Positions 21,535 to 56,696 of a DNA stretch of 64,000 nt are shown here, in pieces. The position numbers and the translations under genes were made by a program. The stretch covers positions 64,001 through 128,000 of the forward strand of contig CAWCFX010000004.1 of the NCBI GenBank assembly GCA_963795085.1. Direction: 5' to 3'. How positions within the stretch are numbered: position 1 is the first letter of the stretch; each line of letters opens with the position of its first letter. The notes below the pieces were generated by a model. The model searched no databases. It saw only the letters and a program-made list of their open reading frames with translations, and was not told the origin of the DNA. This stretch comes from an uncultured Gemmatimonadales bacterium (GTDB lineage Bacteria > Gemmatimonadota > Gemmatimonadetes > Gemmatimonadales > GWC2-71-9).

Positions 21535-21619
21535 GGCTGGAAGATAGGCGCGGGGACAGGGGGTGTCACGGTGGGGGTCCAATTCGCTTACAATCCCTGA
21601 TCCCCCACCAGGAAGACTC

Positions 21620-23886: not shown

Positions 23887-23934
23887 AAACCTGTCGCCTG
23901 TCACCTGTCACTTCTTTCATCTCACTTCTCGCAG

Positions 23935-25244: not shown

Positions 25245-25388
25245 AGAATCCCGGACAAAATGTATTGTATTGTGATGGGCTTTTTCTTACTTTAGTTGTG
25301 CCATACGCATCAGACACAGCCGTCCGTTCCGGATTCACCGCTGTTCGTTCCGCCTCGCGCTGAGAGGCGACTCGTCTCAGAGGACCGT

Positions 25389-31554: not shown

Positions 31555-31640
31555 GAATTGCTCCATCCGTCCCACCCACTTTGCCATCCAGTTGCACCAT
31601 CGAAGGACCGGACGATCCCATCAAGGGGGAGGAAGGTCGC

Positions 31641-34700: not shown

Positions 34701-34714
34701 AAAAGGCGTCTCCC

Positions 34715-39500: not shown

Positions 39501-39765
39501 GGTCGCCAACCAGGTGAGTGTGCAGGTCGATCAGGCCGGGAAGAACCGTGTACGCCGAGAGATCGATCACGCTGGCATGCGCCGGAAGGGGCTGGCCGGA
39601 TGGCCGGACAGTGACAATGCGTTGCCCCTCGACCAGGATCTCCTGGTTCACCCGGGTGGTTCCCCGCTCGACATCCACCAGCCTCCCGGCCCGAACGACG
39701 GTGACCTGGGCCGTGGCGGGCGGTCCCCAAATGACGGCCAGGGCCAGCAGGAAGCGCAGCGTCAC
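36505..39765 (-). CDS. Secreted fusion: metal-dependent amidohydrolase (Xaa-Pro dipeptidase-like) + S9 family peptidase
   Basis: N-half: PGLIDLHTH, FIKI, AAHAHG, SIEHG, YGTDSG. C-half: PD40-type propeller, IHGGP, GNSYGG, EDHICP, PGENH. Confidence 0.88.
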   Translation of the reverse strand: MTLRFLLALAVIWGPPATAQVTVVRAGRLVDVERGTTRVNQEILVEGQRIVTVRPSGQPLPAHASVIDLSAYTVLPGLIDLHTHLVGDLQSSDPLAPLRTTRDQDMAGGIRNARATLTAGFTTVRDVGSYRAFVDVALRDTINRYGIPGPRMAVAGPYVTARGGGGEVTGDTTVNIPPEMRAGVANGAAEVRRRVGEILDGGADFIKIIATGAVLTPGTDPGNPEYSEDEIRAAVEEARARGTYVAAHAHGAEGIRRAVRAGVRSIEHGSLMDAEGIALMKDGGTWLVADIFNGDYIATEGRRAGWPEDILQKNDATTGAQREVFRRAVRAGVRIAYGTDSGVYPHGLATAQLPYMVRYGLTPMQAVQSATISAARVMGWEDRVGSIAPGKFADIIAVPGNLLDTLQARVQAPEGTWSALGIPFVMKGGEVVKQPGARAGRALTTDDYSRLRGLQDIQAAPTGRMALLKIGTVDTLKDEYTSDLWIIDPASGNLRQLTFSEGTESHPRFSPDGRRVAFIAASGEVRVIPAGGGPSSRLFSFGEAVEEFEWFPDGDYIAFTAKVPEPEDSARVRAQVRQYDRTLYKVNGIGFLDNRPVHLWVADLRAGTVRRISGGPYDHAAPAVSPDGRWVAFVSNRTPDRDENRNSDVFAVPADSGSLVQVSHEAGSADQPRWSPDGGMLAYLEQVVPNNYGAHSYLWVTPVRSVGSVPSFGEPLNLTADMDRHVAEGSYTEGGSPYPRWSPDGGRLYVAIEDRARVHAYAIDPATGVRQLVLGGDRSVEFLTPVAGGLLLGIAGAAHLSDVFALDEGVSPPRQLTRLNDAWFRDVRVLPMERLSIRAPDGAEVEAFVVKPPDFQPGRKYPAILGIHGGPQWYYSSSYHMQFQIAASRGYLAVYINPRGSTTYGHDFMALVGGRYGHADDQDFMAALDTVVSRGWADPDNLFLMGNSYGGIATNWLVTQTGRFRAAASSSGVADYTASFGVDDDHIEWIADMGGAPWQVPERYRRESPMTWVERVTTPTIFLHGAEDHICPVGESERMYLALALRGIPTRLVIFPGENHNFDAQASSYPLRSRLVLEWFDAHRRR

Positions 39766-42293
39766 TGTGACTCCCTTTCCTCTCGCCGTCGCACAAACTC
39801 ACGCCGGGCCTGGTCAATATGGTGCAGGACGACCGCCTTCTCGGCTTCGGTGTTCCAGCCGGCATGGGCCCGGGCCGCCTCCTCCAGGCGATCGATCCAG
39901 GCGATGAAGAACTCGGCATCCCGGCGAGACCGGATGGGCCGGTTTCCCAGCAGGATGTAGATCGGGCTGGTGGTGGCGAAGGGGTGGATGTCCAGGATCG
40001 GCTCTGCCGGCCGCTCGCTCCAGGCGCGCAGGGTGTACCATCCACTTTCCCTCACCGGCAATGCCAGGGAGGTGTCAATGCGCGAGCGGCTGCCTCCGAG
40101 GGGAATCCTGGCTGCCACTTCGCCGTTGCGCACGATCTCCAGGTGATCAACTGGAACGATGGATCGAAGCGACACGTCGAATCGGACACGGCGGGGCCGC
40201 TCCAGCCGAATCTCGCCGCCGATGTCGGTTCCCTCCGCCGCAAACGTGAGCAGCGGGCCGTTGGTCACAAAGGTCCGGCCCGACCGCAGCCCTTCCAGCC
40301 AGCGGCGGTAGTCGAGCGGCAGAGCCGACTTCACGTAAACCCTCGTGGTTCCCAGCGGGCCACGAAGGGAGGCGTAGTTGGTCATCGCATCGGTCCCCGC
40401 CCCGGCCGGGATCCGGAACCCGGTGTTGAGCAATCGGTACCAGACCCGGGCCGTCGAGAAATGATCACTGAAGCCCATGACCTCGTAGTAATCAAGCTTC
40501 CCCAGCGCTGCGTCGACCGGGAGGGCGTTGGTCAGAGGTACCTCGACCCGGGCGGGGTCGGGTAGTTCGTCGAACGGATGCACGTACCCGAACAGGGCTC
40601 CCTGTGCCCTGGCCAGGTCGCTGGCCGTGGCGTTGTCCGGGTAGAGGCTGGCGGCGGCCGTGTTGACGTATCCGGCATAGTCCGGCAACAGCAGGTTGCG
40701 GGTCAGTCCCAGAATGCCGGCGTGGCCCCAGAAGCTGGTGTGGTACTCCTGGTCGTGGGCCACCAGCAGGTCCGGGCCGGACACGGAATCCAGGCTCCCG
40801 GTGAAATAGGCGATGTCCGGAATCCGTCCCTCCTTATTCACTATCAGGTTCTCCACCACATGCAGCCCTTCGGCCCTGGCCTGGAGGGCCAGCGAAGCCG
40901 GGGTGGCGCGGTAGCTCCCGCCGTAGTTCATGTGGACATGAAGGTCCCCGCTGGTCCAGCCCTGGCTCGCCAGGTCAGCCAGGCGTTCCATTGGGGCATT
41001 GACCGTGACGGCGCGAGCCGGCCCTACCCGGACCGTCGTGCGAAACACCTTGAACTCCGGCCCCCGACTGATCTCCACCGACACCACTCCCGCCGGGAGC
41101 GTTAGTGTTGAGGACCCCGGGATGTGGAAGTACCCATACTCCATCCGTCGCGCGGCAGGGTTGAAGCCATCGTCCGCATGGTGCCAGGCATCCGGCGGAG
41201 CCGCGCTGCGGCCATCTTCGAGGCGCAGGGATACCCGGGCCGGCATCGGCAGGCCGGCCGGGCCGGTCACCGTGATTCGAAGTTGGCCGGTGGGAACCCG
41301 ATAGGCCAGCGTTTCTGGCACGACCCGGGTGCGAGCCCCGCCGGGAACCTGGAGCACCCACAGACTGGTATTGCCCCCCTCATTGGACACGTAGGCAATG
41401 TGGCGCCCGGCAGGAGACCACCGGGGCGCCGTGGCATCATGGTCCCCATAGGTCAACTGGAAGGCATCGCCGCCATCGGCCGGCACCAGCCAGAGTTGGT
41501 TCCACTGGCGGCCGAGGTAGGAGCTGTAGATGATGCGGCGGCCATCGGGCCCCCAGTCGGGCCGGGCCTTCCAGGTGGTCTCTTCATGGTGGACCGATCG
41601 CAGCGTCCCGCCAGCCCGGGCCGGCATCCGCCAGAACCCGCCGGTGCCCCAGACGCTTCCGCGGTTGGAAACCAGCAGGATCTCTTCGCCATCCGGCGAC
41701 CAGCTGGGCGACAGGTAGTGATCGAAAGCGCTGTAGTAATATCGAGGCAGCCCGCTGTCGCGATCCTCGGTGATCCGCGTGGTCCCGGCTACCCGTCCAT
41801 TGGCCAGGCGCGCCACGAACACGTGCCAGCGGCCTTCATGCCGGGTGCTGACGTACGCGATCCGGGTGCCGTCGGGTGACCATCGTGGTTCGACGTTCAC
41901 GGCGCTGTCCTCCAGCAGCGGCCGGGACACCAGGGTGGCAAGGTCGAGCAGCCACAGGCCCAGCGCATGGCCGCGATAGGAGACATACACCACGGATCGT
42001 CCGTCCGGCGACCAATCCGGCTGGTAGTCGTACCCGTCCCCCGCGGTGATCTGCTCCGCCCGCCCGCTGCCGATCCGCTGGCGCCACAGCGATCCGCCCA
42101 TGGAATAGATCAACGCCTGGCCATCCGGAGACCAGGTGGCCGAGCTGGGTCCGGTGGTCAACTGGGGCAGGTACATCTCGCGGAAGTAGTAACTGTGGGG
42201 AACCCGAATCTGGCTGAACACCGGCTCGCGCTGCGCCAGTACGGGTGAGGCGATTACTCCGAGGCCCAGCAGCAGGACCAGGTGACCCTTCAT
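39762..42293 (-). CDS. Secreted TolB-like propeller + CehA/McbA-family (PHP-like) metallohydrolase
   Basis: Repeated (P)xWSPDG; SGDLHVH, QEYH..FWGH, YVHP, AGAGTD, GRTFVTNGP. Confidence 0.85.
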   Translation of the reverse strand: MKGHLVLLLGLGVIASPVLAQREPVFSQIRVPHSYYFREMYLPQLTTGPSSATWSPDGQALIYSMGGSLWRQRIGSGRAEQITAGDGYDYQPDWSPDGRSVVYVSYRGHALGLWLLDLATLVSRPLLEDSAVNVEPRWSPDGTRIAYVSTRHEGRWHVFVARLANGRVAGTTRITEDRDSGLPRYYYSAFDHYLSPSWSPDGEEILLVSNRGSVWGTGGFWRMPARAGGTLRSVHHEETTWKARPDWGPDGRRIIYSSYLGRQWNQLWLVPADGGDAFQLTYGDHDATAPRWSPAGRHIAYVSNEGGNTSLWVLQVPGGARTRVVPETLAYRVPTGQLRITVTGPAGLPMPARVSLRLEDGRSAAPPDAWHHADDGFNPAARRMEYGYFHIPGSSTLTLPAGVVSVEISRGPEFKVFRTTVRVGPARAVTVNAPMERLADLASQGWTSGDLHVHMNYGGSYRATPASLALQARAEGLHVVENLIVNKEGRIPDIAYFTGSLDSVSGPDLLVAHDQEYHTSFWGHAGILGLTRNLLLPDYAGYVNTAAASLYPDNATASDLARAQGALFGYVHPFDELPDPARVEVPLTNALPVDAALGKLDYYEVMGFSDHFSTARVWYRLLNTGFRIPAGAGTDAMTNYASLRGPLGTTRVYVKSALPLDYRRWLEGLRSGRTFVTNGPLLTFAAEGTDIGGEIRLERPRRVRFDVSLRSIVPVDHLEIVRNGEVAARIPLGGSRSRIDTSLALPVRESGWYTLRAWSERPAEPILDIHPFATTSPIYILLGNRPIRSRRDAEFFIAWIDRLEEAARAHAGWNTEAEKAVVLHHIDQARREFVRRREERESQ

Positions 42294-43654
42294 CGCGCCT
42301 GGGTGCGCCGGCCGCGCAGGTAGAAGATCCCCCCGAACAGGATCGACCCGAGGGCGCCGCCCACCACCTTGAGTTCATAGGTCCACAGGTCGGTGGTGCC
42401 TGGCGGCGGAATCATGGCAAGAATCATCGCGAACGCCGTCAGGCAGAAACCGGCAGCGCCCACCAGGAGACGCCGGATGCCCAACCGTCCGGGACGAAGC
42501 ACGATGTAGGCGAGGAAGAGGTAGAGAAATGGAATGAAATACACCAGCACCATCGTACTCAGCAGGATGAGATACACCCGCTCTACCGTGCTGCCCTGGC
42601 CCAGCGAGGCAAGCAGCAGGAAGACCGTGGCCAGAGAGGCATGAATGAGAATGGCGACGTACGGGGTCTTCCAGGTCGGGTGGATGCGGCCGAACGCCGG
42701 CGGGAAATACCGGTCCAGGCCGATCATCAGCGCCACCCGTGCCGGCCCCACCAGCCAGGCGCCCACGTTGCCCAGGTTACCCACTACGTACATCGCCGCC
42801 GCCAGGGGGATCAGCCAGGCGACTCCCCCGGCGCCGGCCGCGATGGCCTGCAGGAACCCGGACACGACGTTGACCTCTCCGGCGGGCACCAGGTAGAGGA
42901 CCGAGGCCGTACCCAGGATGTACAGACCGGCGATCAGCGGTGCCGAGATATAGACGGACCGTGGCAGGTTGCGCGTGGGGTCGGCGGTCTCTCCGCCCAT
43001 GGATGGCGCCAGTTCCAGCCCCGCGAAGGCGAACGCCACCGAGGCCCACAGGTTGAGCTGGTTGAAATCGCTGAAGTCCGGCAGCAGCGACGGAGCGCTG
43101 AACGGCGTAGCCGGTGGTCCGTGGAAGGCCGCCCATGCACCGAGGCCGAGAAGGACGAGGCCAGGCAGGTACGAACCGATAGCGCCGATGTTCTGCAGCC
43201 ACTTGCCGGTGCTGAGTCCCACGATGTTGACGCCCGTCGCGAGCCAGAGCATGGCCAGGGTGGCGATGAAGACATAACCCCGGTTCTCCATCAGGCCGGA
43301 GCCCTCCTGGCCGGTCACGTACGTGGCGATCACCGCCGTGGACATGAGCAGGCTCGGTGGGTACAGCACGTTGTTGACCCAGTAACACCAGCCGCAGAGA
43401 AACCCGTGACCTTCGCCGAACGCGCGCTTGGTCCAGGCATAAATGCCACCCTGCTCTGGAAACCGTGCACCCAGGTCGGCCACGGCGAGGCCCTGGGGAA
43501 CGAAGAAGAGCAGGGCGGCCAGCAGCCAGAGGGTGAGCGCGCTCCATCCGTTAGACGCGGAGGTGGCAAGCCACCGAAGGCTGAGTACCGCGACCACATT
43601 GAAGAACACGAGGTCGCGGAGCCGAAGCGCGCGGGGAAGTTGCGGCGAGGTGAT
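42290..43654 (-). CDS. APC-family amino acid/polyamine permease
   Basis: About 12 TM helices; LRDLVFF, GGIYAW..AFG, FAFAGLE, HPTWKTP. Start placed at ATC 43654 after GGAGG; the first standard start is GTG 43609. Confidence 0.88.
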   Translation of the reverse strand: MTSPQLPRALRLRDLVFFNVVAVLSLRWLATSASNGWSALTLWLLAALLFFVPQGLAVADLGARFPEQGGIYAWTKRAFGEGHGFLCGWCYWVNNVLYPPSLLMSTAVIATYVTGQEGSGLMENRGYVFIATLAMLWLATGVNIVGLSTGKWLQNIGAIGSYLPGLVLLGLGAWAAFHGPPATPFSAPSLLPDFSDFNQLNLWASVAFAFAGLELAPSMGGETADPTRNLPRSVYISAPLIAGLYILGTASVLYLVPAGEVNVVSGFLQAIAAGAGGVAWLIPLAAAMYVVGNLGNVGAWLVGPARVALMIGLDRYFPPAFGRIHPTWKTPYVAILIHASLATVFLLLASLGQGSTVERVYLILLSTMVLVYFIPFLYLFLAYIVLRPGRLGIRRLLVGAAGFCLTAFAMILAMIPPPGTTDLWTYELKVVGGALGSILFGGIFYLRGRRTQAR

Positions 43655-43826: not shown

Positions 43827-44591
43827 CTATCCCAGGTAGAGCCGCTTCGGATCCAGTTGCTCCCGCAGCAGCGTCAGCTCCCGTTCCGTCGGAGGGGCGA
43901 CGCTCCCCGGTTCACTCCGGGACTGCAGGGCCCAGCCCACCCCCGCCCTGACCTCCTCCGCCGAGATCCCCGGATACAGTTTCGTCAGCACCAGCTCACC
44001 GGTCGCCGGGTCGGCCTCGAGAATCGCCTTGTCGGTGATGACCTTCACCGGGCCAGCGCCGGGCATCCCCAGGGCTGAGCGCGGCGTGCCATCCCGAAAA
44101 CGGTGGCCCGGGCTGGTGATGAAATCGACCTGTTCCGGAAACGCCCGGCGGTCCAGCCGGCTGATGATAAGCGTCCGTTGGGCGTGGATGGCGATCTCGG
44201 CGGCGCCGCCGCTCCCCGGCAGACGCACCTTGGGGTTGTCATAGGATCCGACCACGGTGGTGTTGATGTTGCCATACCGGTCGATCTGGGCGCCCCCCAG
44301 GAAGCCTACTTCGATCCGGCCGTTCTGCAGGATCATCTGAAATACCTGGGCCATCCCGCACACCATGAGCGAACCGGTGACCAGGGCCGGGTCTCCAATC
44401 GAGACCGGGACCCGCTCCGGCACCGCGCCCACCGCCCCCGACTCGTAGATCAGCACCAGGTTGGGGGCATGGATCGCACGAGCCAGGTTGCAGGCGAGAT
44501 TGGGGAGGCCAATCCCGACAAAAACGACCTCGCCGTCGCCCAACTCCCGGGCCGCAACGGCGGTCATCATTTCCGCAGGGGTATAGGTCAT
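43827..44591 (-). CDS. catJ: CoA-transferase subunit B, CatJ/PcaJ (GctB-like) type 3-oxoadipate CoA-transferase
   Basis: EMM..AAR.L, FVGIGLP..NLAR, LIYESG (catalytic Glu), GFLGGAQIDRYGNINTT, VRLPGSGGAAEIA. Confidence 0.8.
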   Translation of the reverse strand: MTYTPAEMMTAVAARELGDGEVVFVGIGLPNLACNLARAIHAPNLVLIYESGAVGAVPERVPVSIGDPALVTGSLMVCGMAQVFQMILQNGRIEVGFLGGAQIDRYGNINTTVVGSYDNPKVRLPGSGGAAEIAIHAQRTLIISRLDRRAFPEQVDFITSPGHRFRDGTPRSALGMPGAGPVKVITDKAILEADPATGELVLTKLYPGISAEEVRAGVGWALQSRSEPGSVAPPTERELTLLREQLDPKRLYLG

Positions 44592-44663
44592 GATCTCGGG
44601 TTTCCCATAAAGCACTGTGCGAGCCTTCCCTCCAACCCGGAGAGGGGGATAGGGGGTGAGGAC

Positions 44664-45587
44664 CTAGAACCCATAATTCACCGGGGAGCTCAGCCGCTCG
44701 CTCGCGTGGAGGCGTGCGGCCAGCCCGGGTTGCCGGGCCATGTAGGCCGCTCGGTCGGGAACGTCGTACACAAATTCCTGCAGGTAGCTCTTGAGTTTCG
44801 ACGGATCGCGAGAGACCGGCTCCCACGCCACGTAGAAGTCATTGTCCCGGTCATAGTAACCCTGGGCGTAGGAGGGGTGTGCGCCCCACGGCTCAACCAC
44901 CACGGAGTCCACAATCATGCCCGGAATGAGTGTCCGGTTGGGATCCGACCGGATCACCGATTCCTCGACCAGTTCCTCCACCACCACGATCACCCGCTTC
45001 GAGGCAAAGGCGGCTTCCTGCTGGACGCCGAGCAGGCCCCACACCTGGGTGTTTCCCTGGGTGTCGGCCCGCTGGGCATGGATAATGGTGACATCGGGAT
45101 TGAGGGCCGGTACCGTCGCGAGCACTTCACCGGTGTAGGGACAGGTCACCGTGCGAATCAGCGGATTCGCACTGGCCAGATCCGTCCCCATGTAGTCCCG
45201 GAGCGTCCAGAAGGGAAGCCGTGCGGCGCCGGCGCTCAGCCGCGCCACCATGCCGAAGTGGGAATACTCCTCGATTTCGAGTGGCTGGTCGGCCTTGCCC
45301 TCCACCGCCCGCCGGAAGGCGTGCAGCGACCCCGCCCCCGGATTCCCCGCCCAGCTGAAGACCAGCTTGCGGGCTACCCCGGCGGCAATCATCTGGTCGT
45401 AGATCAGATCGGGAGTGAGCCGGCAGATGGTCAAGTCCTTCCGGCGCTGCCGAATGATCTCGTGCCCCGCCGCAAAACAGATCAGGTGGGTAAATCCCTC
45501 GATCACCACGGTATCACCGTCGTGGACGTGGCGGGCGATGGCATCCTTCAGGGACACCACCTTCGATAGCGCCGGTTCTTTATGCAT
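44664..45587 (-). CDS. catI: CoA-transferase subunit A, CatI/PcaI (GctA-like) type 3-oxoadipate CoA-transferase
   Basis: DGDTV.IEGFTHLI..AAGHEIIRQ, TPDLIYDQ, LVFSWAGNPG.GSLH, EEYSH, CPYTGE, GAHPSYAQGYYDRDN. Confidence 0.8.
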   Translation of the reverse strand: MHKEPALSKVVSLKDAIARHVHDGDTVVIEGFTHLICFAAGHEIIRQRRKDLTICRLTPDLIYDQMIAAGVARKLVFSWAGNPGAGSLHAFRRAVEGKADQPLEIEEYSHFGMVARLSAGAARLPFWTLRDYMGTDLASANPLIRTVTCPYTGEVLATVPALNPDVTIIHAQRADTQGNTQVWGLLGVQQEAAFASKRVIVVVEELVEESVIRSDPNRTLIPGMIVDSVVVEPWGAHPSYAQGYYDRDNDFYVAWEPVSRDPSKLKSYLQEFVYDVPDRAAYMARQPGLAARLHASERLSSPVNYGF

Positions 45588-45593
45588 GGATAA

Positions 45594-46286
45594 TCAGTTG
45601 GAGTTTCCCGCCCCTTCGACCGCTTCGATCTCGGCGATCAGGCGGTCGCTGGCGCCAGCGAGGTGTTCGGTGAGGAGCGTTTCCGCCCCGGCCGCGTCGT
45701 GGGCGACGAGAGCGGCCAGCAAGGCCCGGTGCTCGGCATCGAACACACTGCGGTACTTGAGCATCAGGTCGTAGGATAGCCAATACCGGTCCACCCGGTG
45801 CAGAAGTTCGGTGATCAGCTCCTGCAGGCGGGGCCGCTGGTCGAGATCATAGATCAGGGTGTGGAACTCCATGTCCAGCGACCCCCAGCTGCCGCCGTCG
45901 GTGGCCTGCTCCGCCGTATCCAGCACCGCTTGAGCCCGGGCCAGGGTCTCGGCGGACAGGGCCGGCGACGAGCGGCGGATCGCTCCAGACTCCAGCAGTG
46001 AACGTATCTCGTAGATCTCCCGGATCTCCTCGGTGGAGAGCGCGCTGACCGTGGCCCCTCGGTTCGGCTGGTAAGTGACCAGGCCTTCCGATTCCAGTTG
46101 GCGCAGCGCCTCGCGGACGGGAATGTGGCTCACCTGCAGGTTCGCCGCGATCTCCGCCTGGGGGAGCGGCTGCCGAGCCTTGAGCCGCCCGGTTGTGATG
46201 GCCTCCCGAAGGGCGGCGGCAACCACTTCGTGAGTGGCCTGGCGACCGGGACGTCGGACCCTACCTAAAGCAGTGGTAATACTCAA
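45594..46286 (-). CDS. GntR (FCD/FadR subfamily) transcriptional regulator
   Basis: wHTH LREAI..G...VSHIPVREAL.QLESEGL..PNRGA; FCD domain with EFH and EHRALL. Confidence 0.92.
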   Translation of the reverse strand: MSITTALGRVRRPGRQATHEVVAAALREAITTGRLKARQPLPQAEIAANLQVSHIPVREALRQLESEGLVTYQPNRGATVSALSTEEIREIYEIRSLLESGAIRRSSPALSAETLARAQAVLDTAEQATDGGSWGSLDMEFHTLIYDLDQRPRLQELITELLHRVDRYWLSYDLMLKYRSVFDAEHRALLAALVAHDAAGAETLLTEHLAGASDRLIAEIEAVEGAGNSN

Positions 46287-46332
46287 AGCTTGCTCTTCCG
46301 ATCAGTTGAGAAGGACCGTACGGTGACTGCGC

Positions 46333-46361
46333 TTGCAACAGAATATATTATATATTATCTT
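46333..46361 (+). promoter_or_regulatory. Putative kamA sigma70 promoter with an AT-rich operator in its spacer
   Basis: TTGCAA-N17-TATCTT; the region contains ATATATT-ATATATT (near-palindrome AATATATTATATATT), between divergent gntR and kamA. Confidence 0.6.
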
Positions 46362-46434
46362 CCATTCAGTCAACAGCCACCGCGGACCCAATCACGCGGC
46401 GGTTCCTCCTGTTTCCTGTTTCGACGGGTTACCC

Positions 46435-47796
46435 ATGAGCGATTCAACGACGGTCGAAACCATCCAGCAGCCGATCCAGTATCCGCCGGCCCGCGAGTAT
46501 GTGGAACCGGATTGGACCCGGCTGCCCGGATTCCGTGGTGCTTCCCGGGAAGACTGGGAAAGCGCCCTCTGGCAGCGAAAGAACACGGTCAAGAACCTGA
46601 AGGAGCTCAAGGCGGTGCTGGGCCCCCTCCTTCCGGAAACCCTGTTCGCGAGCATCGCTCGCGACCAGGAGGAGCGGGCGACCATGTCCATGCTATTGCC
46701 GCCCCAGATGATCAATACCATGAACACGGAGAATCTCTGGGAGGACCCGGTGCGCCGCTACATGGCGCCTGCCCTGGACGACCGGCGGACTGACTGGCCC
46801 AACCATCCCATGGCCTCGCGGGACAGTCTGCATGAGGCCGAGATGTGGAAAGTGGAAGGCCTCACCCATCGCTATCCCACCAAGGTCCTGGCGGAATTGC
46901 TATCGACCTGTCCCCAGTACTGCGGGCACTGCACCCGCATGGACCTGGTCGGCAATGACGTGCCCCAGGTGGACAAGCTCAAGTTCGTGACGCCCCAGAA
47001 GAGCCGCCACCAGCAGATCCTGGAGTACCTCCGCCAGACGCCCTCGGTGCGGGACGTCGTCGTATCCGGCGGCGATATCGCCAACTTGCCGATCACGGTC
47101 CTGGAGCCGTTCATCAGCGCCCTGCTCGATATTCCGAGCATCCGGGATATTCGGCTGGCCAGCAAGGGCCTGATGGGTATTCCCCAGCATTTCCTGCAGG
47201 AGTCGGTCGTCGATGGGATGGCCCGCCTGGCCAGGAAGGCGATCGAGCGGGGCGTGGACCTGGCGCTGCATACCCACGTCAACCACGCGCAGCAGGTCAC
47301 GCCGCTGGTGGGCCGGGCCGCCCAGAAACTGCTGGAGATCGGCTTCCGCGATGTCCGGAACCAGGGTGTGCTTCTCCGCGGGGTGAACACCACTCCGCAG
47401 GACCTGCTCGAACTCTGCTTCATGCTGCTCGATCACGCCAAGATCATGCCCTACTACTTCTACATGTGCGACATGATTCCGAATTCGGAGCACTGGCGGC
47501 TCGGCGTCTTTGAGGCGCAGCAGCTGCAGCATGACATCATGGGGTACCTCCCCGGTTTTGCCACGCCGCGGATCGTGTGCGACGTGCCCTTCGTCGGCAA
47601 ACGCTGGATTCACCAGCTGGCGGACTACGACCGGGAAAAAGGTATCAGCTACTGGACCAAGAACTACCGCACCGGCATCGAGATGGACGATCCCGAGGCG
47701 CTCAACCGGAAATACGAGTATTACGATCCGATTTACCTCCTGCCGGAATCGGGGCAGGAATGGTGGCAGAAACAGTACCCTCAAGGCGGGAGGTAA
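46435..47796 (+). CDS. kamA: KamA-family radical SAM/PLP aminomutase, probably lysine 2,3-aminomutase
   Basis: GLTHRYP, CPQYCGHCTR (CxxxCxxC), VVSGGD, HVNH, NQGVLLRGVN, PYYFYMCD, CDVPFVGK (PLP Lys). Confidence 0.88.
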   Translation: MSDSTTVETIQQPIQYPPAREYVEPDWTRLPGFRGASREDWESALWQRKNTVKNLKELKAVLGPLLPETLFASIARDQEERATMSMLLPPQMINTMNTENLWEDPVRRYMAPALDDRRTDWPNHPMASRDSLHEAEMWKVEGLTHRYPTKVLAELLSTCPQYCGHCTRMDLVGNDVPQVDKLKFVTPQKSRHQQILEYLRQTPSVRDVVVSGGDIANLPITVLEPFISALLDIPSIRDIRLASKGLMGIPQHFLQESVVDGMARLARKAIERGVDLALHTHVNHAQQVTPLVGRAAQKLLEIGFRDVRNQGVLLRGVNTTPQDLLELCFMLLDHAKIMPYYFYMCDMIPNSEHWRLGVFEAQQLQHDIMGYLPGFATPRIVCDVPFVGKRWIHQLADYDREKGISYWTKNYRTGIEMDDPEALNRKYEYYDPIYLLPESGQEWWQKQYPQGGR

Positions 47797-47799
47797 AGC

Positions 47800-49155
47800 A
47801 TGGTGACCCAGACCGAACCCCAGACGAAAGCCCGGGAGACCTCTGCGCCGGAGTACCCCCGGATCCTGACGCCGCCGCCCGGGCCCCGGGGCCGCGCCAT
47901 AGTGGACCAGGACGCCGAGTGGACCTCGACATCCTATATCAAGGAGTATCCGCTCGTCTTCGCCGGCGGGAAGGGCGCCATGGTCGAGGACGTGGACGGC
48001 AACCGGTACATCGATTTCATGGCCGGCATCGCCGTTTCGGCCACCGGGTACAACCACCCGAAGGTCGTGGCGGCCATCCAGGACCAGGCCGCCCGGTTTC
48101 TGCACGCCTGCGGCACCGACTTCTACTTCGAGAATTTTGCCCGGCTCGCCGAGCGGTTGGCCCGCTCGGTACCGGGTCCGAACAAGAAACGGGTCTTCCT
48201 GACCAACTCGGGCACCGAGGCGGTGGAGGGCGCCATCAAACTGGCCCGGAACCACACCGGCCGCACCGCGCTGATCGCGTTCCACGGCTCGTTTCATGGC
48301 CGCACCTACGGCGCCATGAGCCTGACATCCAGCAAGACCAAGCAGCGCAAGGGATTCGGGCCGTTCCTGCCGGAGGTGTACCACGTACCCTACCCGGCCC
48401 CATACCGGCTGGGCGGTGACGGAGCGGCCAGCGCCGTGTCCCTGAATGCACTGCAGGAGATGTTCGATCGCCAGCTGAGTCCCACCGACGTCGCCGCCAT
48501 CTTCGTCGAACCGGTCCAGGGCGAGGGCGGCTACGTCCTCCCGCCGGCCGGCTTCCTCCGTTCGCTGCGGGAGCTCTGCGACCAGCACGGCATCCTCCTG
48601 GTAGCAGACGAGGTGCAGTGCGGGGTCGGCCGCACCGGGAAGATGTGGGCCTGCGAATGGGACGGGGTGGAGCCCGATATCCTGTGCACCGCCAAGGGGC
48701 TCGGCAGCGGCATGCCAATCGGGGCGTTCATCGCGAAGGAGTCGGTGATGACCTGGGAGTCGGGGGCTCACGGCTCCACCTTTGGAGGCAACCCGGTCGG
48801 TTGCGCCGCGGCCCTGGCCACTCTGGATATCGTCGAGGAATCCCTGCCCCACGTCCTCGCCATGGGCGACCGGATCCTCGCCGCCGCCCGGGTACTCCAG
48901 CAGAAGTATCCGGTCATCGGCGATGTCCGGGGCAAGGGCCTGATGATCGGCATCGAGTTTGTGAAGGACCGGAAGACCAGGGAACCCTACCCCGAGCTGG
49001 TGGACCGGATCACCGAGCGTGCCTTCGCCAAGGGCCTTCTCCTCCTCGGCTGCGGCAAGAGCGCTTTCCGCCTGGCGCCACCCCTGGTCCTGAACGAGTA
49101 CGATGTGGACACCGGGATGGCGATACTGGGAGAGTGCTTGGGGGAGGAGAAGTGA
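47800..49155 (+). CDS. Class-III PLP aminotransferase (GabT/ornithine omega-aminotransferase-like)
   Basis: DVDGNRYIDF, NSGTEAVE, SFHGRT, EPVQGEGG, DEVQCG.GRTG, AKG, STFGGNP; starts 3 nt after the kamA stop. Confidence 0.9.
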   Translation: MVTQTEPQTKARETSAPEYPRILTPPPGPRGRAIVDQDAEWTSTSYIKEYPLVFAGGKGAMVEDVDGNRYIDFMAGIAVSATGYNHPKVVAAIQDQAARFLHACGTDFYFENFARLAERLARSVPGPNKKRVFLTNSGTEAVEGAIKLARNHTGRTALIAFHGSFHGRTYGAMSLTSSKTKQRKGFGPFLPEVYHVPYPAPYRLGGDGAASAVSLNALQEMFDRQLSPTDVAAIFVEPVQGEGGYVLPPAGFLRSLRELCDQHGILLVADEVQCGVGRTGKMWACEWDGVEPDILCTAKGLGSGMPIGAFIAKESVMTWESGAHGSTFGGNPVGCAAALATLDIVEESLPHVLAMGDRILAAARVLQQKYPVIGDVRGKGLMIGIEFVKDRKTREPYPELVDRITERAFAKGLLLLGCGKSAFRLAPPLVLNEYDVDTGMAILGECLGEEK

Positions 49156-49330
49156 GAAGTGAGCCGTGAAAAGTGCTCAGAAAGTGAAATTGGAAGGGGC
49201 GCTCGATGGTGGAGCGCCTTTTCAGCGTCCTGCACTTTCTCGCTGTGCGGCAGGTTTGGCAGCATTGCAGAACGCGTTACATGCTAGTGGACTGTCTCAC
49301 ATGTTTCGATAGTCGCTGTCGAACACCTCG

Positions 49331-49446
49331 CCACGGAGCCACGAAGCACACGGAGGTAGCACGGAGCACCCACCGTAGCGGGCTCCCAATACCTTGGTGG
49401 CAGCATGAAGCTTCTTCGTGCTGCCGTGAACTTCGTGACTCCGTGG
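49331..49446. repeat. Long imperfect inverted repeat built from CACG(G/A)AG units
   Basis: Left arm CCACGGAGCCACGAAGCACACGGAGGTAGCACGGAG (49331-49366) pairs with right arm CTTCGTGCTGCCGTGAACTTCGTGACTCCGTGG (49414-49446). Confidence 0.75.
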
Positions 49447-49548
49447 TGAATCAGTTCTTGCCCACCTGATCGGGACCTTGTATACAGTCCACTAGTCTTG
49501 GACCATGAGGAACCATCGCAGCTTGTGGCCTGGCCCCCCTCTCACTTC

Positions 49549-51132
49549 TCACCTCTCCCTTTCTGTTACTACTGTCCTGCTCTGCTCCCGGACAAACTGC
49601 TGCACATAGTACGGGCCGCAGCCGCCCTTTCCGCTCGAACCTGATCCCTTCCACCCCGTGAAGGGCTGGGCTCCGGGCCAGGCGCCGGTGGTGGCACCGC
49701 TCCGCTTATTGGCATAACAGACGCCCGCCTCGATCTCGTCGAAGAAACGGTCTACTTCCTCCGGGTCCTCCGAGAAGATTCCCGCCGTCAAACCATACTC
49801 CGCCTTGTTGCTTTCGGCGATCGCCTGGTCCAGGGAGTCAACCTCGGCGACAGCCAGAAAGGGAACAAACAGCTCCTCGAAAAAGAGCGAGCTGGACAGC
49901 GGCACCCGCGCCACGGTGGGCGCCACGTAGTGGCCCTTGTCGAAGCCTCCGCCTTTCAGGCGATCACCACCGGCCAGGATGGTCCCCTCTTTCTTCGCCT
50001 GCTCCACCGCGGCCTCCCACCGCTTGACCGCTTTCTGGTTGATCACCGGGCCGAAATAGACATCCCGCTCGGTGGGATCGCCCATCTTCATGCCCTTCAT
50101 CTTGTCCAGCAGCTTGGCCACAAACGGCTCAACTATGGTTTTGTGGACATACACGCGGGAGGTGGCGCTGCACTTCTGGTTCTGCAGCCCAAAGGCCGAC
50201 TTCATGACTCCTTCGGCCGCCGCGTCGAGGTCCGCTGACTCCATCACGATCGCCGGGTTCTTGCCCCCCAGCTCAAGCAGGCACGGCTTGATCCACTTCC
50301 GGCTGATCCCCTGGTGAATCCGAAGCCCCACCGCCTTGGACCCGGTGAAGACGATACCGTCCACCCCGGGATGCTGCCATAGCGCATCTCCCATGACCGA
50401 CCCGTGGCCGGACAGGAAGCTGAACACCCCTGTGGGCATCCCGGCGTCGCGATAGACCTCGTACAACTGCCAGCCGGTAAGCGGGGTATCCTCCGCCGGC
50501 TTGTACACCACCGCGTTGCCGGTCATCAGCGCCGCGGAGGACATCCCGGTGGATAGCGCCAACGGGAAGTTGAACGGTGCGATACACGCGAAGACCCCGT
50601 AGGGCCGCTGCACGTCGGTGTTGCGCTCGATCGGCGTCAGATTGGCCATCGGACGGACGAAGCCGTTAGCGTCCTCCACCTGCTGGGCGTAGTAGTCGAT
50701 CAAGTCCGCCGCTTCTTCCGCGTCCCCCATGGACTCCAGCCGGCTCTTGCCCACCTCCAGGCTCATGGTGGCGGCGAGGTCGTACTTCCGGTCCCGGATG
50801 ATCTCCGCGGCGCGCCGGATGATCGCCAGCCGCTCCTGCCAGGGCCGGCGACCCCAGCCCTTCTGGGCTCGGCGGGCGGCCTGGACGGCCAGGTCCACCT
50901 GCTGGGGACCCGCTGCGGCAAAGGTGCCGATCACCACGGACGTGTCGATGGGGGAGGTGTCCACGATGGGATCGCCTCCGCCGCTCCCGGGTACCTCCCG
51001 GCCGTCGATCAGCAGCGGGTAGGTCTTCCCGAGCTGGGACCGCAACCGGGTGAGCGCCTCGTCGAAGCGACGGTGGAAGTCGTCCAGGTCGACGTTGGTG
51101 GAGGTGTAGGTGACTTTCTGGGTAGTAGCCAT
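49549..51132 (-). CDS. Aldehyde dehydrogenase, P5C-dehydrogenase (PruA/RocA)-like
   Basis: IAPFNFP, FTGS, LELGGKN, QNQKCSATSR (catalytic Cys), EELF, YGLTAG, QPFTGWKGSG; RocA-like N-terminus. Confidence 0.88.
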   Translation of the reverse strand: MATTQKVTYTSTNVDLDDFHRRFDEALTRLRSQLGKTYPLLIDGREVPGSGGGDPIVDTSPIDTSVVIGTFAAAGPQQVDLAVQAARRAQKGWGRRPWQERLAIIRRAAEIIRDRKYDLAATMSLEVGKSRLESMGDAEEAADLIDYYAQQVEDANGFVRPMANLTPIERNTDVQRPYGVFACIAPFNFPLALSTGMSSAALMTGNAVVYKPAEDTPLTGWQLYEVYRDAGMPTGVFSFLSGHGSVMGDALWQHPGVDGIVFTGSKAVGLRIHQGISRKWIKPCLLELGGKNPAIVMESADLDAAAEGVMKSAFGLQNQKCSATSRVYVHKTIVEPFVAKLLDKMKGMKMGDPTERDVYFGPVINQKAVKRWEAAVEQAKKEGTILAGGDRLKGGGFDKGHYVAPTVARVPLSSSLFFEELFVPFLAVAEVDSLDQAIAESNKAEYGLTAGIFSEDPEEVDRFFDEIEAGVCYANKRSGATTGAWPGAQPFTGWKGSGSSGKGGCGPYYVQQFVREQSRTVVTERER

Positions 51133-51135
51133 GAT

Positions 51136-52467
51136 TCAGTCCATCGCCTTCAGGGTTTGCGAGAACAGGGCGATCATTTCGTCAATCTGGTCTTCGGTCA
51201 CGATGAATGGAGGCGCCAGCATGACCAGGTCGCCGTTGGTGCCGTCGGCCTGCCCGACATTGGCCCAGACGATCAGGCCGTTCGCCCGGGCGGCGTCGGT
51301 GAAGCGCTCGGCGAATTTCCGGGCCCGCGGCATCGGAGCCTTGGTCGCCTTGTCGGCCACGAACTCGATCCCGGCCAGCAGGCCCCGGCCCCGGACGTCT
51401 CCCACCAGGGGCAAGTCCAGCAGGGCGCGCAATCGCTCATGAAACACCGGCCCGATGACGGCGCAGCGCTCGATCAGTCTGTGCTTCTCCAGGTACTGAA
51501 TGGACGCCAGCCCGGCCGCACACAGCACCGGGTTGTGGGAGAATGTCTGTGCGTGCATGAAGTCGCCGGACCCCGCAACCAGAGCATCCAGGATCCTGCG
51601 GCCGGTCACGATCGCCGACAGCGGAGCGTAGCCGCCGCTGAGCCCCTTGCCCAGGATCAGGATGTCGGGGGTGACGCCGAACTGCTCGATGGCCGTGTAG
51701 GTCCCGGTCCGGCCGGCTCCGACCAGCACCTCATCCGCGATGAACAGGACATTGTGCCGGTCGCAGATGGCCCGGATCTCCTTGAAATACCCCGGCGGCG
51801 GCACCGAGGCACCGGTCGAGGATCCCCCAATCGGCTCGGCGATGAACGCCGCGATGTTCATCGCGCCCTGCTGCAGGATCATGGTCTCCAGCGCCTCGCC
51901 GGTGCAGCCCAGGCATTCCGGCTCGCCGCCGCCGCACTTGCATCGGTACGGATAGGGCGCGGGAATTCGGACGACGTCCACCATCCACTGCCAGTACATC
52001 AGCTTGTAATGCTCCCGGGCCGAAGCGGAGAGGGCCAGCAGGGTGTTGCCATGGTAGGATGGCTGCAGGGCGATGATCTTGTGCTTCGACGGCTGCCCTG
52101 CTTCCACCCAGTACTGCCGGGCCAGCTTGAGCGCCGCCTCCACCGCCTCCGACCCGCTGCTCAGGAAATAGGAATACTCCAGGCCGGGACCGCACCGGCG
52201 GGCCAGTTCCGTGCTCAGGTCCTCCACGGCCTGGTGGGTGAAAGCGGTTCCATTGATGTAGCCGACCCGGCCGGCCTGCGCCGCCATGGCCGCGCCGATC
52301 TCCATGACCCCATGCCCCAGGTTGGCCACGAATGCCCCCCCGGAACCGTCCAGGTACCGCTTTCCGGTCTCGTCGTACAGGCAGCACCCTTCCCCCCGCA
52401 CGATGAGCGGGTGATCCCGCTGAAGGCGGCGGTAGAAAACGCTGGAATTTGGATAGGCGTGTTTCAT
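51136..52467 (-). CDS. Class-III PLP aminotransferase (YodT/BioA-like subgroup)
   Basis: YLDGSGGA.V.NLGHG, SGSEAVE.ALKLARQYW, SYHGNT, DEVLVGAGRTG, LGKGLSGGY, HAQTF. Confidence 0.9.
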   Translation of the reverse strand: MKHAYPNSSVFYRRLQRDHPLIVRGEGCCLYDETGKRYLDGSGGAFVANLGHGVMEIGAAMAAQAGRVGYINGTAFTHQAVEDLSTELARRCGPGLEYSYFLSSGSEAVEAALKLARQYWVEAGQPSKHKIIALQPSYHGNTLLALSASAREHYKLMYWQWMVDVVRIPAPYPYRCKCGGGEPECLGCTGEALETMILQQGAMNIAAFIAEPIGGSSTGASVPPPGYFKEIRAICDRHNVLFIADEVLVGAGRTGTYTAIEQFGVTPDILILGKGLSGGYAPLSAIVTGRRILDALVAGSGDFMHAQTFSHNPVLCAAGLASIQYLEKHRLIERCAVIGPVFHERLRALLDLPLVGDVRGRGLLAGIEFVADKATKAPMPRARKFAERFTDAARANGLIVWANVGQADGTNGDLVMLAPPFIVTEDQIDEMIALFSQTLKAMD

Positions 52468-52534
52468 ATGCTTATTCTTGAGAGACTCTGGACCCGGTTC
52501 GTATTCTAACACCCCTCGCCCTCATCGTCCCGCC

Positions 52535-53782
52535 ATGCGATTTCTCCTGCTCCTGGTGCTCGCGTCTCTCCCCCTCCGGCCGGCGGCGGCTCAGACCCCG
52601 GAACGCGCCCGGGACCTGGGTGTCCCCCTCGATGGCGTTCCCGGCCGCCTCAACGCCATCACCGACGTGCCCGGCGTTCGGGTCGGCCACACCACCATCA
52701 TCCGGGGCAGCGGGGACCTGGTGCCCGGGCAGGGGCCGGTGCGCACCGGGGTCACCGCGGTGTTCCCGACCGGGGACTCCATCCTCCGGCCAGTCTTTGC
52801 GGGGTGGTTCAGCCTCAACGGCAACGGGGAGATGACCGGGACCACCTGGATCGAAGAATACGGAGAACTCCTCTACCCGGTCCTGATCACCAACACCAAC
52901 AGCGTCGGGGTCGCCCGCGACGCGGTCATCGAGTGGGGCCGCGAACGGCTTGCCCCCGACGCCTGGAACTGCTGTCTCCCGGTGGCCGCGGAGACCTGGG
53001 ACGGCGACCTGAACGATATCTTCGGCTTTCATGTCACCCGCGACGATGTATTCAACGCGCTGAACACCGCCCGCGCCGGGCCGGTCGCGGAGGGCAACGT
53101 CGGAGGCGGGACGGGCATGCAGTGTCTCGGGTTCAAGGGAGGCATCGGCACGGCGTCGCGGCGGGTGGGAATCGCCAGCGACACTTTTACGGTTGGTGTC
53201 CTGGTCCAGTGCAACTTCGGCAGCCGGAACCAGCTTCGAGTCGCCGGCATTCCAGTCGGCCGGGAAATCACGGCGCCTCCCGACTGCTACGACTCAGACA
53301 GCCCCCTCGACTCTGACCGGGCGGCGCAGCGCTGCCCGCGCGAGCAGGGCCGGGCGCCCGCCCCGCGTGAGCCCGATGGGTACCTGCCAGCCAGCTACGA
53401 GGATGACCACGGCTCCATCATCGTGGTGATTGCCACCGATGCTCCCCTGCTTCCCCACCAGCTCAAGCGCATCGCCAAACGCGCCTCGCTCGGCGTCGCC
53501 CGCGCCGGCGGCGTCGCCGGCAGCGGGTCAGGGGACATATTCCTCGCCTTTTCCACCGTCCCCGCCGAGTCCTCCGATTCGAGCATCCTGACCCAGCGCA
53601 TGGTGCACGACCGCCGCATCAATACCCTGTACGAAGCCACCGTTCAGGCCACCGAAGAGTCAATTCTCAACGCCATGCTCGCCGCCCGCACCATGACGGG
53701 CGCCAACTACTACCGCGTTACCGCCTTGCCGCACGAGGAGTTGCGGTCGGTGCTGGCGCGCTACAACCGGCTCACCCGTTGA
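52535..53782 (+). CDS. Secreted DmpA/BapA-family (P1/S58) aminopeptidase
   Basis: Signal peptide; NAITDVPGVRVGH, RTGVT, LNGNGEMTG, EGNVGGGTGM, autoprocessing site G|SIIVVIATDAP, GSGDIF. Confidence 0.9.
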   Translation: MRFLLLLVLASLPLRPAAAQTPERARDLGVPLDGVPGRLNAITDVPGVRVGHTTIIRGSGDLVPGQGPVRTGVTAVFPTGDSILRPVFAGWFSLNGNGEMTGTTWIEEYGELLYPVLITNTNSVGVARDAVIEWGRERLAPDAWNCCLPVAAETWDGDLNDIFGFHVTRDDVFNALNTARAGPVAEGNVGGGTGMQCLGFKGGIGTASRRVGIASDTFTVGVLVQCNFGSRNQLRVAGIPVGREITAPPDCYDSDSPLDSDRAAQRCPREQGRAPAPREPDGYLPASYEDDHGSIIVVIATDAPLLPHQLKRIAKRASLGVARAGGVAGSGSGDIFLAFSTVPAESSDSSILTQRMVHDRRINTLYEATVQATEESILNAMLAARTMTGANYYRVTALPHEELRSVLARYNRLTR

Positions 53783-53897
53783 TTGCCTGGCCATGCCTGG
53801 CTCAAGATGATCTCGACCTTCGCCAGCCCGGACCCGGCCCTGCCGAAGATCGGGATGCCGTTCGGCATCCGACCTACCCCCGGAAATGAATGGCGCG

Positions 53898-56634: not shown

Positions 56635-56657
56635 CCCGGTGAGGACGATTCACACGC

Positions 56658-56692
56658 CACTCGGCACTCGGCACTCTGCACTCTCCCCTCTC
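56658..56692 (+). repeat. Degenerate heptamer tandem repeat (CACTCGG-like)
   Basis: cactcgg-cactcgg-cactctg-cactctc-ccctctc. Confidence 0.75.
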
Positions 56693-56696
56693 CCCC

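Follow-up and report, generated by a model that had tools for sequence, protein, structure and literature searches.

A candidate lysine catabolic route through beta-lysine and 3-aminoadipate to 3-oxoadipate in Gemmatimonadota

Introduction

What is the role of a KamA-family (lysine 2,3-aminomutase) gene that sits with two class-III aminotransferases, an aldehyde dehydrogenase (ALDH) and a two-subunit CoA-transferase? This arrangement occurs in a 64,000-nucleotide (nt) stretch of contig CAWCFX010000004.1 (positions 64,001 to 128,000 of the forward strand, G+C content 66%), hereafter the window, from an uncultured, soil-type Gemmatimonadales bacterium (assembly GCA_963795085.1; 3.89 Mb, 93.4% complete). 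A reading of the window from its sequence alone had proposed that the cluster specifies an undescribed conversion of lysine, via beta-lysine and 3-aminoadipate, to 3-oxoadipate. Gene content and gene neighbourhood make such a B12-independent and acetylation-independent route the most likely function of the cluster, a conclusion that we hold with slightly less than even confidence. Genes reported below as absent from the source genome were sought in the whole assembly.

In the proposed pathway, a divergent KamA would convert L-lysine to beta-lysine. The first aminotransferase, AT1, would remove the C6 amine to give 3-amino-6-oxohexanoate, in equilibrium with pyrroline-5-acetate; an ALDH resembling delta-1-pyrroline-5-carboxylate (P5C) dehydrogenase (P5CDH) would oxidize the aldehyde to 3-aminoadipate; and the second aminotransferase, AT2, would yield 3-oxoadipate. 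A PcaIJ-like transferase would then form 3-oxoadipyl-CoA, from which a PcaF-like thiolase encoded on contig C2 would release succinyl-CoA and acetyl-CoA. Retained active-site residues and the context of orthologues back the first step, and similarity and neighbourhood back the last. The three steps between are ones that we infer; they are favoured by the translational coupling of KamA to AT1, by the gene order at one related locus (L002), by a distinct AT1 clade, and by the presence of separate GabT and P5CDH genes in the genome. This set of transaminases, ALDH, transferase and thiolase would fit beta-lysine (3,6-diaminohexanoate) exactly: neither of its two amines is in the alpha position, a single aldehyde has to be oxidized, and the product is a 3-oxo-diacid.

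Results

All seven genes named in the sequence-only reading were found at or near the positions it gave. A GntR/FCD transcriptional regulator (45594..46286; Pfam GntR and FCD) is the first gene of a minus-strand operon that continues with the CoA-transferase alpha (44664..45587; GctA/CatI-like) and beta (43827..44615; GctB/CatJ-like) subunits, both PF01144 members, an APC permease, a propeller-CehA/McbA hydrolase and an amidohydrolase-S9 peptidase. Divergent from the regulator, on the plus strand, lie the gene for the KamA-family radical SAM/pyridoxal phosphate (PLP) aminomutase (46436..47796) and AT1 (47800..49155). A second minus-strand pair, AT2 (51136..52512) and the ALDH gene (49549..51132), converges on them. 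The KamA stop and the AT1 start are separated by 3 nt, and AT2 and ALDH are likewise 3 nt apart. AT2 was correctly recognized as a gene in the earlier reading; its open reading frame (ORF) starts at 52512, 45 nt beyond the end at 52467 given there. The KamA ORF is open from 46333, and its true start is probably the ATG at 46436, since homologues are 449-461 amino acids (aa) long. This start leaves a 149-nt AT-rich divergent control region (46287..46435) with promoter-like hexamers on both strands (46323-46351 on the plus strand and 46373-46345 on the minus strand), which are consensus matches only.

Judged from its sequence and the context of its orthologues, the divergent KamA is very likely a lysine 2,3-aminomutase. 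It matches the solved lysine 2,3-aminomutase 2A5H with an E-value of 5e-42, and in the alignment it keeps the CxxxCxxC cysteine motif and the equivalents of R134, D293, D330 and the PLP lysine K337. We take D293 and D330 of 2A5H to hold the side-chain amine of lysine and R134 to hold its carboxylate. The corresponding aspartates of the window protein are D380 and D417, and the TR of a CTRM motif stands at the carboxylate-arginine position; the YMCD and CDVPFVGK motifs noted previously are present and align to D293, D330 and K337. These key residues are invariant in all nine divergent-clade rows, which come from several phyla, and the cysteine motif and PLP lysine are invariant in nine canonical Gemmatimonadota rows as well. 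The protein falls below all NCBIfam KamA cut-offs (173 versus 199 bits for TIGR00238; 170 versus 525 bits for TIGR03820) and has no Pfam match, PF12544 (LAM_C) and PF04055 included. It is the sole KamA-family gene of the source genome.

More than 590 stretches in species-representative genomes contain relatives of this KamA, and the neighbourhoods of the best 80 of these (62-82% identical) were read: 12 Gemmatimonadota loci, assigned by record title and in some cases on short contigs, and 68 others, including 41 actinomycete loci. Among these best 80, the divergent clade, which is large and strongly conserved, takes in Gemmatimonadota, Myxococcota, Actinomycetota, Acidobacteriota and others. 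The actinomycete orthologues are 62-67% identical to the window KamA, and within 6 kb of them, at the 41 loci, lie genes for a KamD-like 5,6-aminomutase alpha subunit (32 loci), the KamE beta subunit (25), a GlmL-like protein (23), the 3,5-diaminohexanoate dehydrogenase Kdd (22) and the 3-aminobutyryl-CoA ammonia-lyase Kal (11). We take the divergent KamA to be a real lysine 2,3-aminomutase because its orthologues sit with KamDE, Kdd and Kal, which need beta-lysine. The predicted conversion of lysine to beta-lysine is well supported by this context together with the kept substrate-binding residues. An Amidohydro_3 gene also accompanies KamA in 31 actinomycete loci, beside kdd, kamDE or kal. 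At three Myxococcota loci (L009, L012, L019) the divergent KamA is directly followed by a canonical-type KamA paralogue (with LAM_C; 490 bits on the AblA model), and a Ser/Thr kinase with a PEGA domain is encoded upstream.

The cluster around KamA is not a chance juxtaposition: as the sequence-only reading would have it, the genes cluster in other genomes too, at nine of the 12 Gemmatimonadota loci. AT1 (75-80% identical) follows KamA in these nine, the transferase is adjacent in seven, the locus contains ALDH in six cases and AT2 in five, and none of the four was seen at the other 68 of the best 80 loci. We also surveyed 201 Gemmatimonadota genomes. The divergent KamA is encoded in 14 of them, with one further relative at 35% identity, and transferase-alpha orthologues (74-85%) in 45, a count that takes in one genome flagged unpublished (G182). 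KamA lies within 6 kb of the transferase, on the same contig, in 12 of the 14 divergent-KamA genomes; the exceptions are G145, in which the two are on separate contigs, and G148, in which no transferase was detected. Locus L002 carries KamA, ALDH and AT1, in that order, as a single same-strand operon.

AT1 is predicted to be a beta-lysine 6-aminotransferase, co-transcribed with KamA. It belongs to PRK05769, a family of the archaeal Orn/Lys omega-aminotransferase type (592 bits; cut-off 552), and scores 406 bits, under the cut-off, on the 4-aminobutyrate (GABA) transaminase model TIGR00700. Its nearest solved structure is 7VNO (382 bits), which is probably PH1423 of Pyrococcus horikoshii. PH1423 is reported to act on the distal amine of ornithine and lysine, and weakly on omega-amino acids (PMC9986279). 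Since KamA is coupled with AT1, and in L002 also with ALDH, AT1 would act on beta-lysine itself. We compared 11 KamA-linked AT1 sequences with 14 AT1' sequences, the counterparts from operons without an adjacent KamA, a second family being represented. The KamA-linked AT1 sequences form a clade with 100/100 support on a branch of 0.3, apart from all 14 AT1' rows. AT1' is 64-68% identical to AT1 and likewise falls in PRK05769 (595 and 605 bits for L086 and L089, above the cut-off of 552).

The ALDH has P5CDH models as its best families (PRK03137, 427 bits; TIGR01237, 415 bits), without reaching their cut-offs of 648-660 bits; it scores 271-306 bits on models of succinate semialdehyde dehydrogenase (SSADH), and its nearest solved relatives are PutA and P5CDH. 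It is not the sole P5CDH-type enzyme of the genome, which encodes a canonical P5CDH at C1:135.4-137.4 kb (815 bits against a cut-off of 614). We predict that the window ALDH oxidizes 3-amino-6-oxohexanoate to 3-aminoadipate.

At a sub-group of five loci (L001, L002, L027, L033 and L035), extra genes stand between AT1 and ALDH, encoding an M20 deacylase-like protein (L001 and L035 only), a 136-aa protein and an HGSNAT-like membrane acyltransferase, and an M28 peptidase recurs beside the hydrolase. These genes may hint at an acylated substrate. No orthologue of the L035 M20 gene was found in the source genome.

AT2, an omega-transaminase/YodT-like protein, has PRK07483 (450 bits) and PRK06917 (443 bits) as its best families, both under the cut-off. 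Its nearest solved structure, 3I4J, is also the nearest one given for YodT of Bacillus subtilis in PMC6522883. AT2 is predicted to be the transaminase that turns 3-aminoadipate into 3-oxoadipate. We also considered AT2 as an acyl-CoA beta-transaminase of the Kat type. Kat is HemL-like, according to PMC3149608; AT2 matches NCBIfam families and solved structures of omega-transaminase, BioA and YodT type, and the matches listed include no GSAM/HemL family. On these family matches we rejected the assignment.

The CoA-transferase is, by sequence comparison, a candidate 3-oxoadipate:succinyl-CoA transferase. The best solved relative of its alpha subunit is GctA (1POI, 139 bits), in agreement with the GctAB-like type assigned earlier. 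The alpha subunit is 50-57% identical to pca-operon transferases of Stutzerimonas, Rubrobacter, Azospirillum, Streptomyces rimosus and Sinorhizobium, which score about 290-330 bits against it (tblastn), and the beta subunit is 48-50% identical to the pca-operon beta subunits. The glutamate of a YESG motif in the beta subunit, presumably the catalytic residue of family-I CoA-transferases, is invariant in a 9-row alignment. The transferase contexts that we read comprise five pca operons, one gentisate-like aromatic cluster and two haloarchaeal loci, with a thiolase or with aminotransferases. Plasmid matches to the alpha subunit number 244 records, all below 60% identity. A homologue on a plasmid of Streptomyces sp. 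N50 (57%) lies in the gentisate-like aromatic cluster, not in an amine cluster. A 55% identical transferase pair on a plasmid of Natronosalvus halobius (L104) has as its neighbours three genes for class-III aminotransferases, a PotD-type ABC transporter and a gene of the ornithine cyclodeaminase family, and may belong to an analogous cluster for amine catabolism in haloarchaea.

A PcaF-like thiolase gene adjoins the operon in seven of 22 loci, the window not being one of them. These operon-linked thiolases are orthologous, at 70-75% identity, to a thiolase on contig C2 of the source genome, which is itself 51-54% identical to PcaF. The earlier reading had assigned the last step to the transferase and to a thiolase, with a candidate at 13995 of the window. 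The enzyme types are supported by the identity to pca-operon transferases and the PcaF-like neighbour in seven of 22 loci. The thiolase at 13995 is the wrong paralogue: it is only 43-45% identical to PcaF and 43-48% identical to the operon-linked thiolases, and it lies among genes for 3-hydroxyacyl-CoA dehydrogenases. The C2 thiolase belongs to a region (134000-153000, L085) that encodes this PcaF/PaaJ-like enzyme, two enoyl-CoA hydratases and a 3-hydroxyacyl-CoA dehydrogenase (PaaF- and PaaH-like genes among them), a weak BoxB-like match and an ALDH of the StyD type. The region may encode a CoA-dependent pathway for aromatic acids, one that likewise has 3-oxoadipyl-CoA as an intermediate.

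Several absences noted for the window extend to the assembly. No tblastn match was found there for KamD, KamE, Kdd or Kal, and no PF05853 match for BKACE/Kce, so the statement that the clostridial lysine fermentation genes are missing holds genome-wide. The same is true of the beta-lysine acetyltransferase that had been reported missing from the cluster: the AblB/YodP type (TIGR03827) was not found in the genome. Nor does the genome have orthologues of pcaG, pcaB, pcaC or pcaD; apart from one weak partial intradiol-dioxygenase domain (38 bits), the reported lack of aromatic ring-cleavage genes likewise holds throughout. Elsewhere the genome encodes a GabT distinct from AT1 (558 bits against a cut-off of 507), a putrescine-aminotransferase-like protein and an SSADH-like protein. 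With its own GabT and canonical P5CDH, and with neither a ring-cleavage set nor KamDE, Kdd, Kal, Kce or AblB, the genome offers no competing use for the cluster enzymes.

The sequence-only reading had overlooked two things: an older transaminase/ALDH/transferase operon without an adjacent KamA, and a canonical KamA that the majority of Gemmatimonadota have in another, ATP-grasp context. The 14 operon loci that we read were chosen, with a preference for long contigs, from 33 genomes that either lack the divergent KamA or have it unlinked. All 14 show a single co-directional run of AT2, ALDH (9/14), AT1', transferase alpha and beta, the permease (9/14) and the propeller hydrolase (13/14), in which AT2 is always the first gene. 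KamA and GntR are absent from the run at all 14. GntR is restricted to KamA-linked clusters, with 60-68% identical orthologues at nine KamA-linked loci and at L101. The transferase, AT2 and ALDH trees, the last a quick version, do not divide KamA-linked from unlinked sequences, unlike the AT1 tree. From the separate AT1 clade and the lack of a split in the other trees, we conclude that KamA, its AT1 and GntR behave like a module that took the place of AT1' in an existing operon. The core is thus an older Gemmatimonadota operon (AT2-ALDH-AT1'-transferase alpha/beta-permease-hydrolase), to which KamA, the AT1 clade and GntR are an add-on. Genomes without the add-on would draw beta-lysine from a canonical KamA elsewhere in the genome or from outside the cell.

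By a KamA-family model, 118 of the 201 Gemmatimonadota genomes encode a member (a count that takes in G182, G057 and G157, flagged unpublished). Where the divergent KamA is full-length (13 genomes), no other copy is present; the KamA of the remainder is canonical and AblA-like, about 360-400 aa in length, and shares the aspartates. At six of six loci of the same family, the canonical KamA is the last gene of a conserved block, in which it is preceded by genes for DUF116, an FAD-linked oxidase, a 260-aa protein, a pair of Ddl-like ATP-grasp ligases and a 131-aa protein. The block was read in the window (20737-27493) and at L114-L120, L026, L028 and L097; in the window it has no KamA, and ThyA takes the place of the 260-aa gene. 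At three loci (L026, L028 and G145 / L097) the divergent KamA occupies the exact position of the canonical copy. That the two forms are mutually exclusive and share one chromosomal position suggests that they make the same product. Two genomes of the second family have the operon and the canonical KamA block only 3-5 kb apart. The two ATP-grasp genes of the window (25296-27493) were rejected as housekeeping Ddl, an above-cut-off Ddl being encoded elsewhere. The block may make a beta-lysine conjugate of undescribed nature.

Among the remaining genes of the minus-strand run, the APC-family amino-acid/amine permease (42290..43609, minus strand; Pfam AA_permease_2, with GadC-type models far under cut-off) is a candidate importer of the pathway substrate, and orthologues (55-63%) lie downstream of the transferase at L001, L016, L032 and L035. 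The next gene encodes an 843-aa protein in which a TolB-like propeller is joined to a metallohydrolase of the CehA/McbA family (39762..42293, minus strand; NF038032, 229 bits, and PD40 repeats). Conserved as a terminal gene of the operon, it has 57-63% identical orthologues adjoining the transferase at L002, L016, L032 and L033. Last in the run, overlapping the preceding gene by 4 nt, is the gene for a 1086-aa protein with amidohydrolase, PD40 propeller and S9 peptidase parts (36505..39765, minus strand; Pfam Amidohydro_1, Peptidase_S9 and PD40), a possible peptide-processing accessory. A SusC/SusD-like outer-membrane pair (31581-36031) adjoins the operon next to this peptidase gene, and SusC-like genes also stand beside the operon at L091 and L092; the pair and the peptidase together suggest uptake of peptides or other oligomers.

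On the other side of the cluster, divergent from AT2, lies a gene for an S58 (DmpA/BapA-type) peptidase (52478..53782, plus strand; Pfam Peptidase_S58, 378 bits). At L091 (5807-7051), in a genome of another family, an orthologue (59%) lies just upstream of AT2 in the same orientation; none was seen beside AT2 at the other operon loci, and the source genome has two further S58 paralogues. The peptidase is a possible operon accessory, the association being weak. Beyond it, a 358-aa ORF (53886-54962) has no Pfam or NCBIfam match and a third-codon-position G+C under the filter, and may not be a gene. Two amine-oxidase/phytoene-desaturase-family genes (55045-58451), the first CrtO-like (265 bits, far under cut-off), are probably carotenoid genes without a link to the cluster. 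A GNAT-family gene of unassigned role is found at 29071-29586.

Discussion

Several observations count against a pathway from lysine to 3-oxoadipate. About 32 of the sampled genomes have the operon but not the divergent KamA. A look for transcript evidence turned up no RNA run covering 43827..52512. A KamA-family gene of either form is present in 42 of the 45 operon genomes and in 76 of the 156 others; this co-occurrence is weak evidence, because KamA is near-universal in the main family (81 of 96 genomes) and relatives are not independent. The transferase scores far under the cut-offs of the PcaI and PcaJ NCBIfam models (44 versus 128.5 and 48 versus 243.6 bits), models that may not cover the GctAB-like transferases of pca operons. 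The earlier suggestion that it might group with CatIJ failed: in a 16-row tree of the alpha subunit, the five pca-context rows form a clade with 100% support that excludes the eight Gemmatimonadota rows. The latter form a clade of their own that joins, weakly (78), a haloarchaeal pair from another context. The operon-linked thiolases have pcaF as their best family, at 511-535 bits against cut-offs of 597-605. The ALDH is the weakest point of the proposal. It is missing from five of the 14 operon loci without an adjacent KamA, and no orthologue was found elsewhere in those five genomes (best match 36-37%), which means that a dedicated ALDH is not obligatory; in such genomes, either a different ALDH would be needed or the steps would follow another order.

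Among the alternatives, the one that survives best is a Pseudomonas-type route without protection of the amine, ending in GABA, which we nevertheless regard as unlikely. AT2 would take the C3 amine first, the transferase and thiolase would split 6-amino-3-oxohexanoyl-CoA into acetyl-CoA and 4-aminobutyryl-CoA, GABA would be freed, and AT1 and ALDH would be GABA transaminase and SSADH. This scheme also has one step per enzyme, suits a transferase outside the pca clade, and resembles the known aerobic beta-lysine route, which reportedly ends in GABA. Operons without ALDH would be easily explained if a housekeeping SSADH serves, and an SSADH-like gene is present. AT1 does score on the GABA transaminase model, but under its cut-off; AT1 and AT1' belong to another family, PRK05769, and the genome already has an above-cut-off GabT. 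The ALDH is closer to P5CDH than to SSADH, and if AT1 and ALDH acted four steps later, it would be odd that a separate AT1 clade accompanies KamA and that L002 has a KamA-ALDH-AT1 operon. Chemically, 6-amino-3-oxohexanoate and 4-aminobutyryl-CoA with unprotected amines would be expected to cyclise, and the genome has no AblB-type acetyltransferase.

Next in order, and also improbable in our judgement, is that the older operon acts on a different substrate, such as a diamine, an omega-amino acid or a beta-amino acid derived from peptides, with KamA adjacent for another reason, for instance shared regulation or a supply of beta-lysine to the two ATP-grasp ligases. The 14 operons without an adjacent KamA, the canonical KamA in the ATP-grasp block at six of six same-family loci, and the Natronosalvus plasmid with its transferase homologue among class-III aminotransferases and a PotD-type transporter could all be accommodated in this way, as could the peptidase genes (S58, M28, M20, DUF885, S9) that recur around the operon. 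Against it, KamA is co-transcribed with pathway enzymes and, in its divergent form, lies less than 6 kb from the transferase in 12 of 14 genomes, and we found no commoner substrate that would use two transaminations, an aldehyde oxidation and a 3-oxoacid transferase and thiolase as beta-lysine would.

An order that passes through 2-aminoadipate first, with AT1 as lysine 6-aminotransferase, ALDH converting 2-aminoadipate semialdehyde (piperideine-6-carboxylate, P6C) to 2-aminoadipate, and the KamA-like enzyme as a 2-aminoadipate 2,3-aminomutase before the same later intermediates, suits a P5CDH-like ALDH (P6C being a homologue of P5C), the L002 gene order and, if 7VNO is indeed PH1423, the use of L-lysine by the nearest solved relative of AT1, but is highly improbable, since both lysine-amine-binding aspartates are kept in all rows, where we would presume an acidic substrate to need other residues, the 62-67% identical orthologues sit with 5,6-aminomutase genes that need beta-lysine, and the mutually exclusive KamA forms at a shared position suggest one product.

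The proposed route from lysine through beta-lysine to 3-oxoadipate shares parts with several known systems. Its first step is that of clostridial and Fusobacterium lysine fermentation and of the actinomycete clusters, the latter using the same divergent KamA clade (62-67%). It differs from lysine fermentation in that the source genome lacks KamD, KamE, Kdd, Kal and Kce; there would be no B12-dependent skeleton rearrangement, and the predicted products are succinyl-CoA and acetyl-CoA, not acetate and butyrate. The aerobic beta-lysine pathway of Pseudomonas B4 is said to run via N6-acetyl-beta-lysine, and the kamA-yod operon of B. subtilis reportedly comprises KamA, YodT, a two-subunit CoA-transferase, an acetyltransferase and a deacetylase. 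Published work on B. subtilis places yodQ and yodS near kamA and describes the family of YodT and its regulation. Like the B. subtilis group, the window combines KamA, a YodT-like class-III aminotransferase (AT2 and YodT sharing 3I4J as nearest structure) and a two-subunit CoA-transferase. Compared with Pseudomonas B4 and B. subtilis, the window cluster adds a second transaminase and the P5CDH-like ALDH, has a GctAB/CatIJ-type transferase, and has no AblB/YodP-type acetyltransferase.

The end steps resemble those of the beta-ketoadipate pathway (PcaIJ/CatIJ and PcaF), given transferase subunits 48-57% identical to pca-operon ones and an associated thiolase whose best family is pcaF. The source genome, in contrast to beta-ketoadipate degraders, lacks ring-cleavage and lactone-processing genes, and its transferase belongs to a separate clade with scores under the curated cut-offs. 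GctAB of Acidaminococcus fermentans (1POI) is likewise a two-subunit family-I CoA-transferase, but it is far more distant than the pca-operon transferases, and the window has no glutamate-fermentation context. With ornithine and proline catabolism (a RocD-type transaminase and P5CDH), the middle of the route shares its logic, an omega-transamination followed by oxidation of a pyrroline-forming amino-aldehyde, and the ALDH is nearest to P5CDH. The window ALDH differs in scoring under the P5CDH cut-offs, in coexisting with a canonical P5CDH encoded elsewhere, and in its predicted substrate, which is one carbon longer between amine and carboxylate.

The sequence-only reading knew of no description of this pathway, and our literature searches on 3-aminoadipate, beta-lysine degradation, aminomutase with 3-oxoadipate, and lysine in Gemmatimonadota returned no such route, older Pseudomonas work on beta-lysine being outside their scope. 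In the literature searched, nothing was found on bacterial catabolism of 3-aminoadipate. The route is plausibly a new variant of lysine catabolism. We offer a broader and more doubtful view, on balance unlikely, that Gemmatimonadota have an undescribed route to the beta-ketoadipate end steps in which the same beta-lysine pool is, in the majority of the phylum, also used by the Ddl-like ATP-grasp pair, the resulting conjugate being recycled by the operon and its peptidases.

Lysine catabolism is among the most varied of amino-acid pathways. If the proposal is true, it would gain a new branch via 3-aminoadipate, an intermediate without an established place in metabolism, and amino-acid breakdown would be linked to the end steps of the beta-ketoadipate pathway with no need for B12, for acetyl protection or for an aromatic substrate. 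Practical use is possible, in the form of a beta-lysine omega-transaminase, a dicarboxylate beta-transaminase and routes from lysine to adipate-type C6 diacids. The pathway would also give functions to a KamA clade with more than 590 relatives that current models do not capture, to a PcaIJ-related transferase clade, to a P5CDH-like ALDH paralogue and to two class-III aminotransferases of an abundant, little-studied soil phylum.

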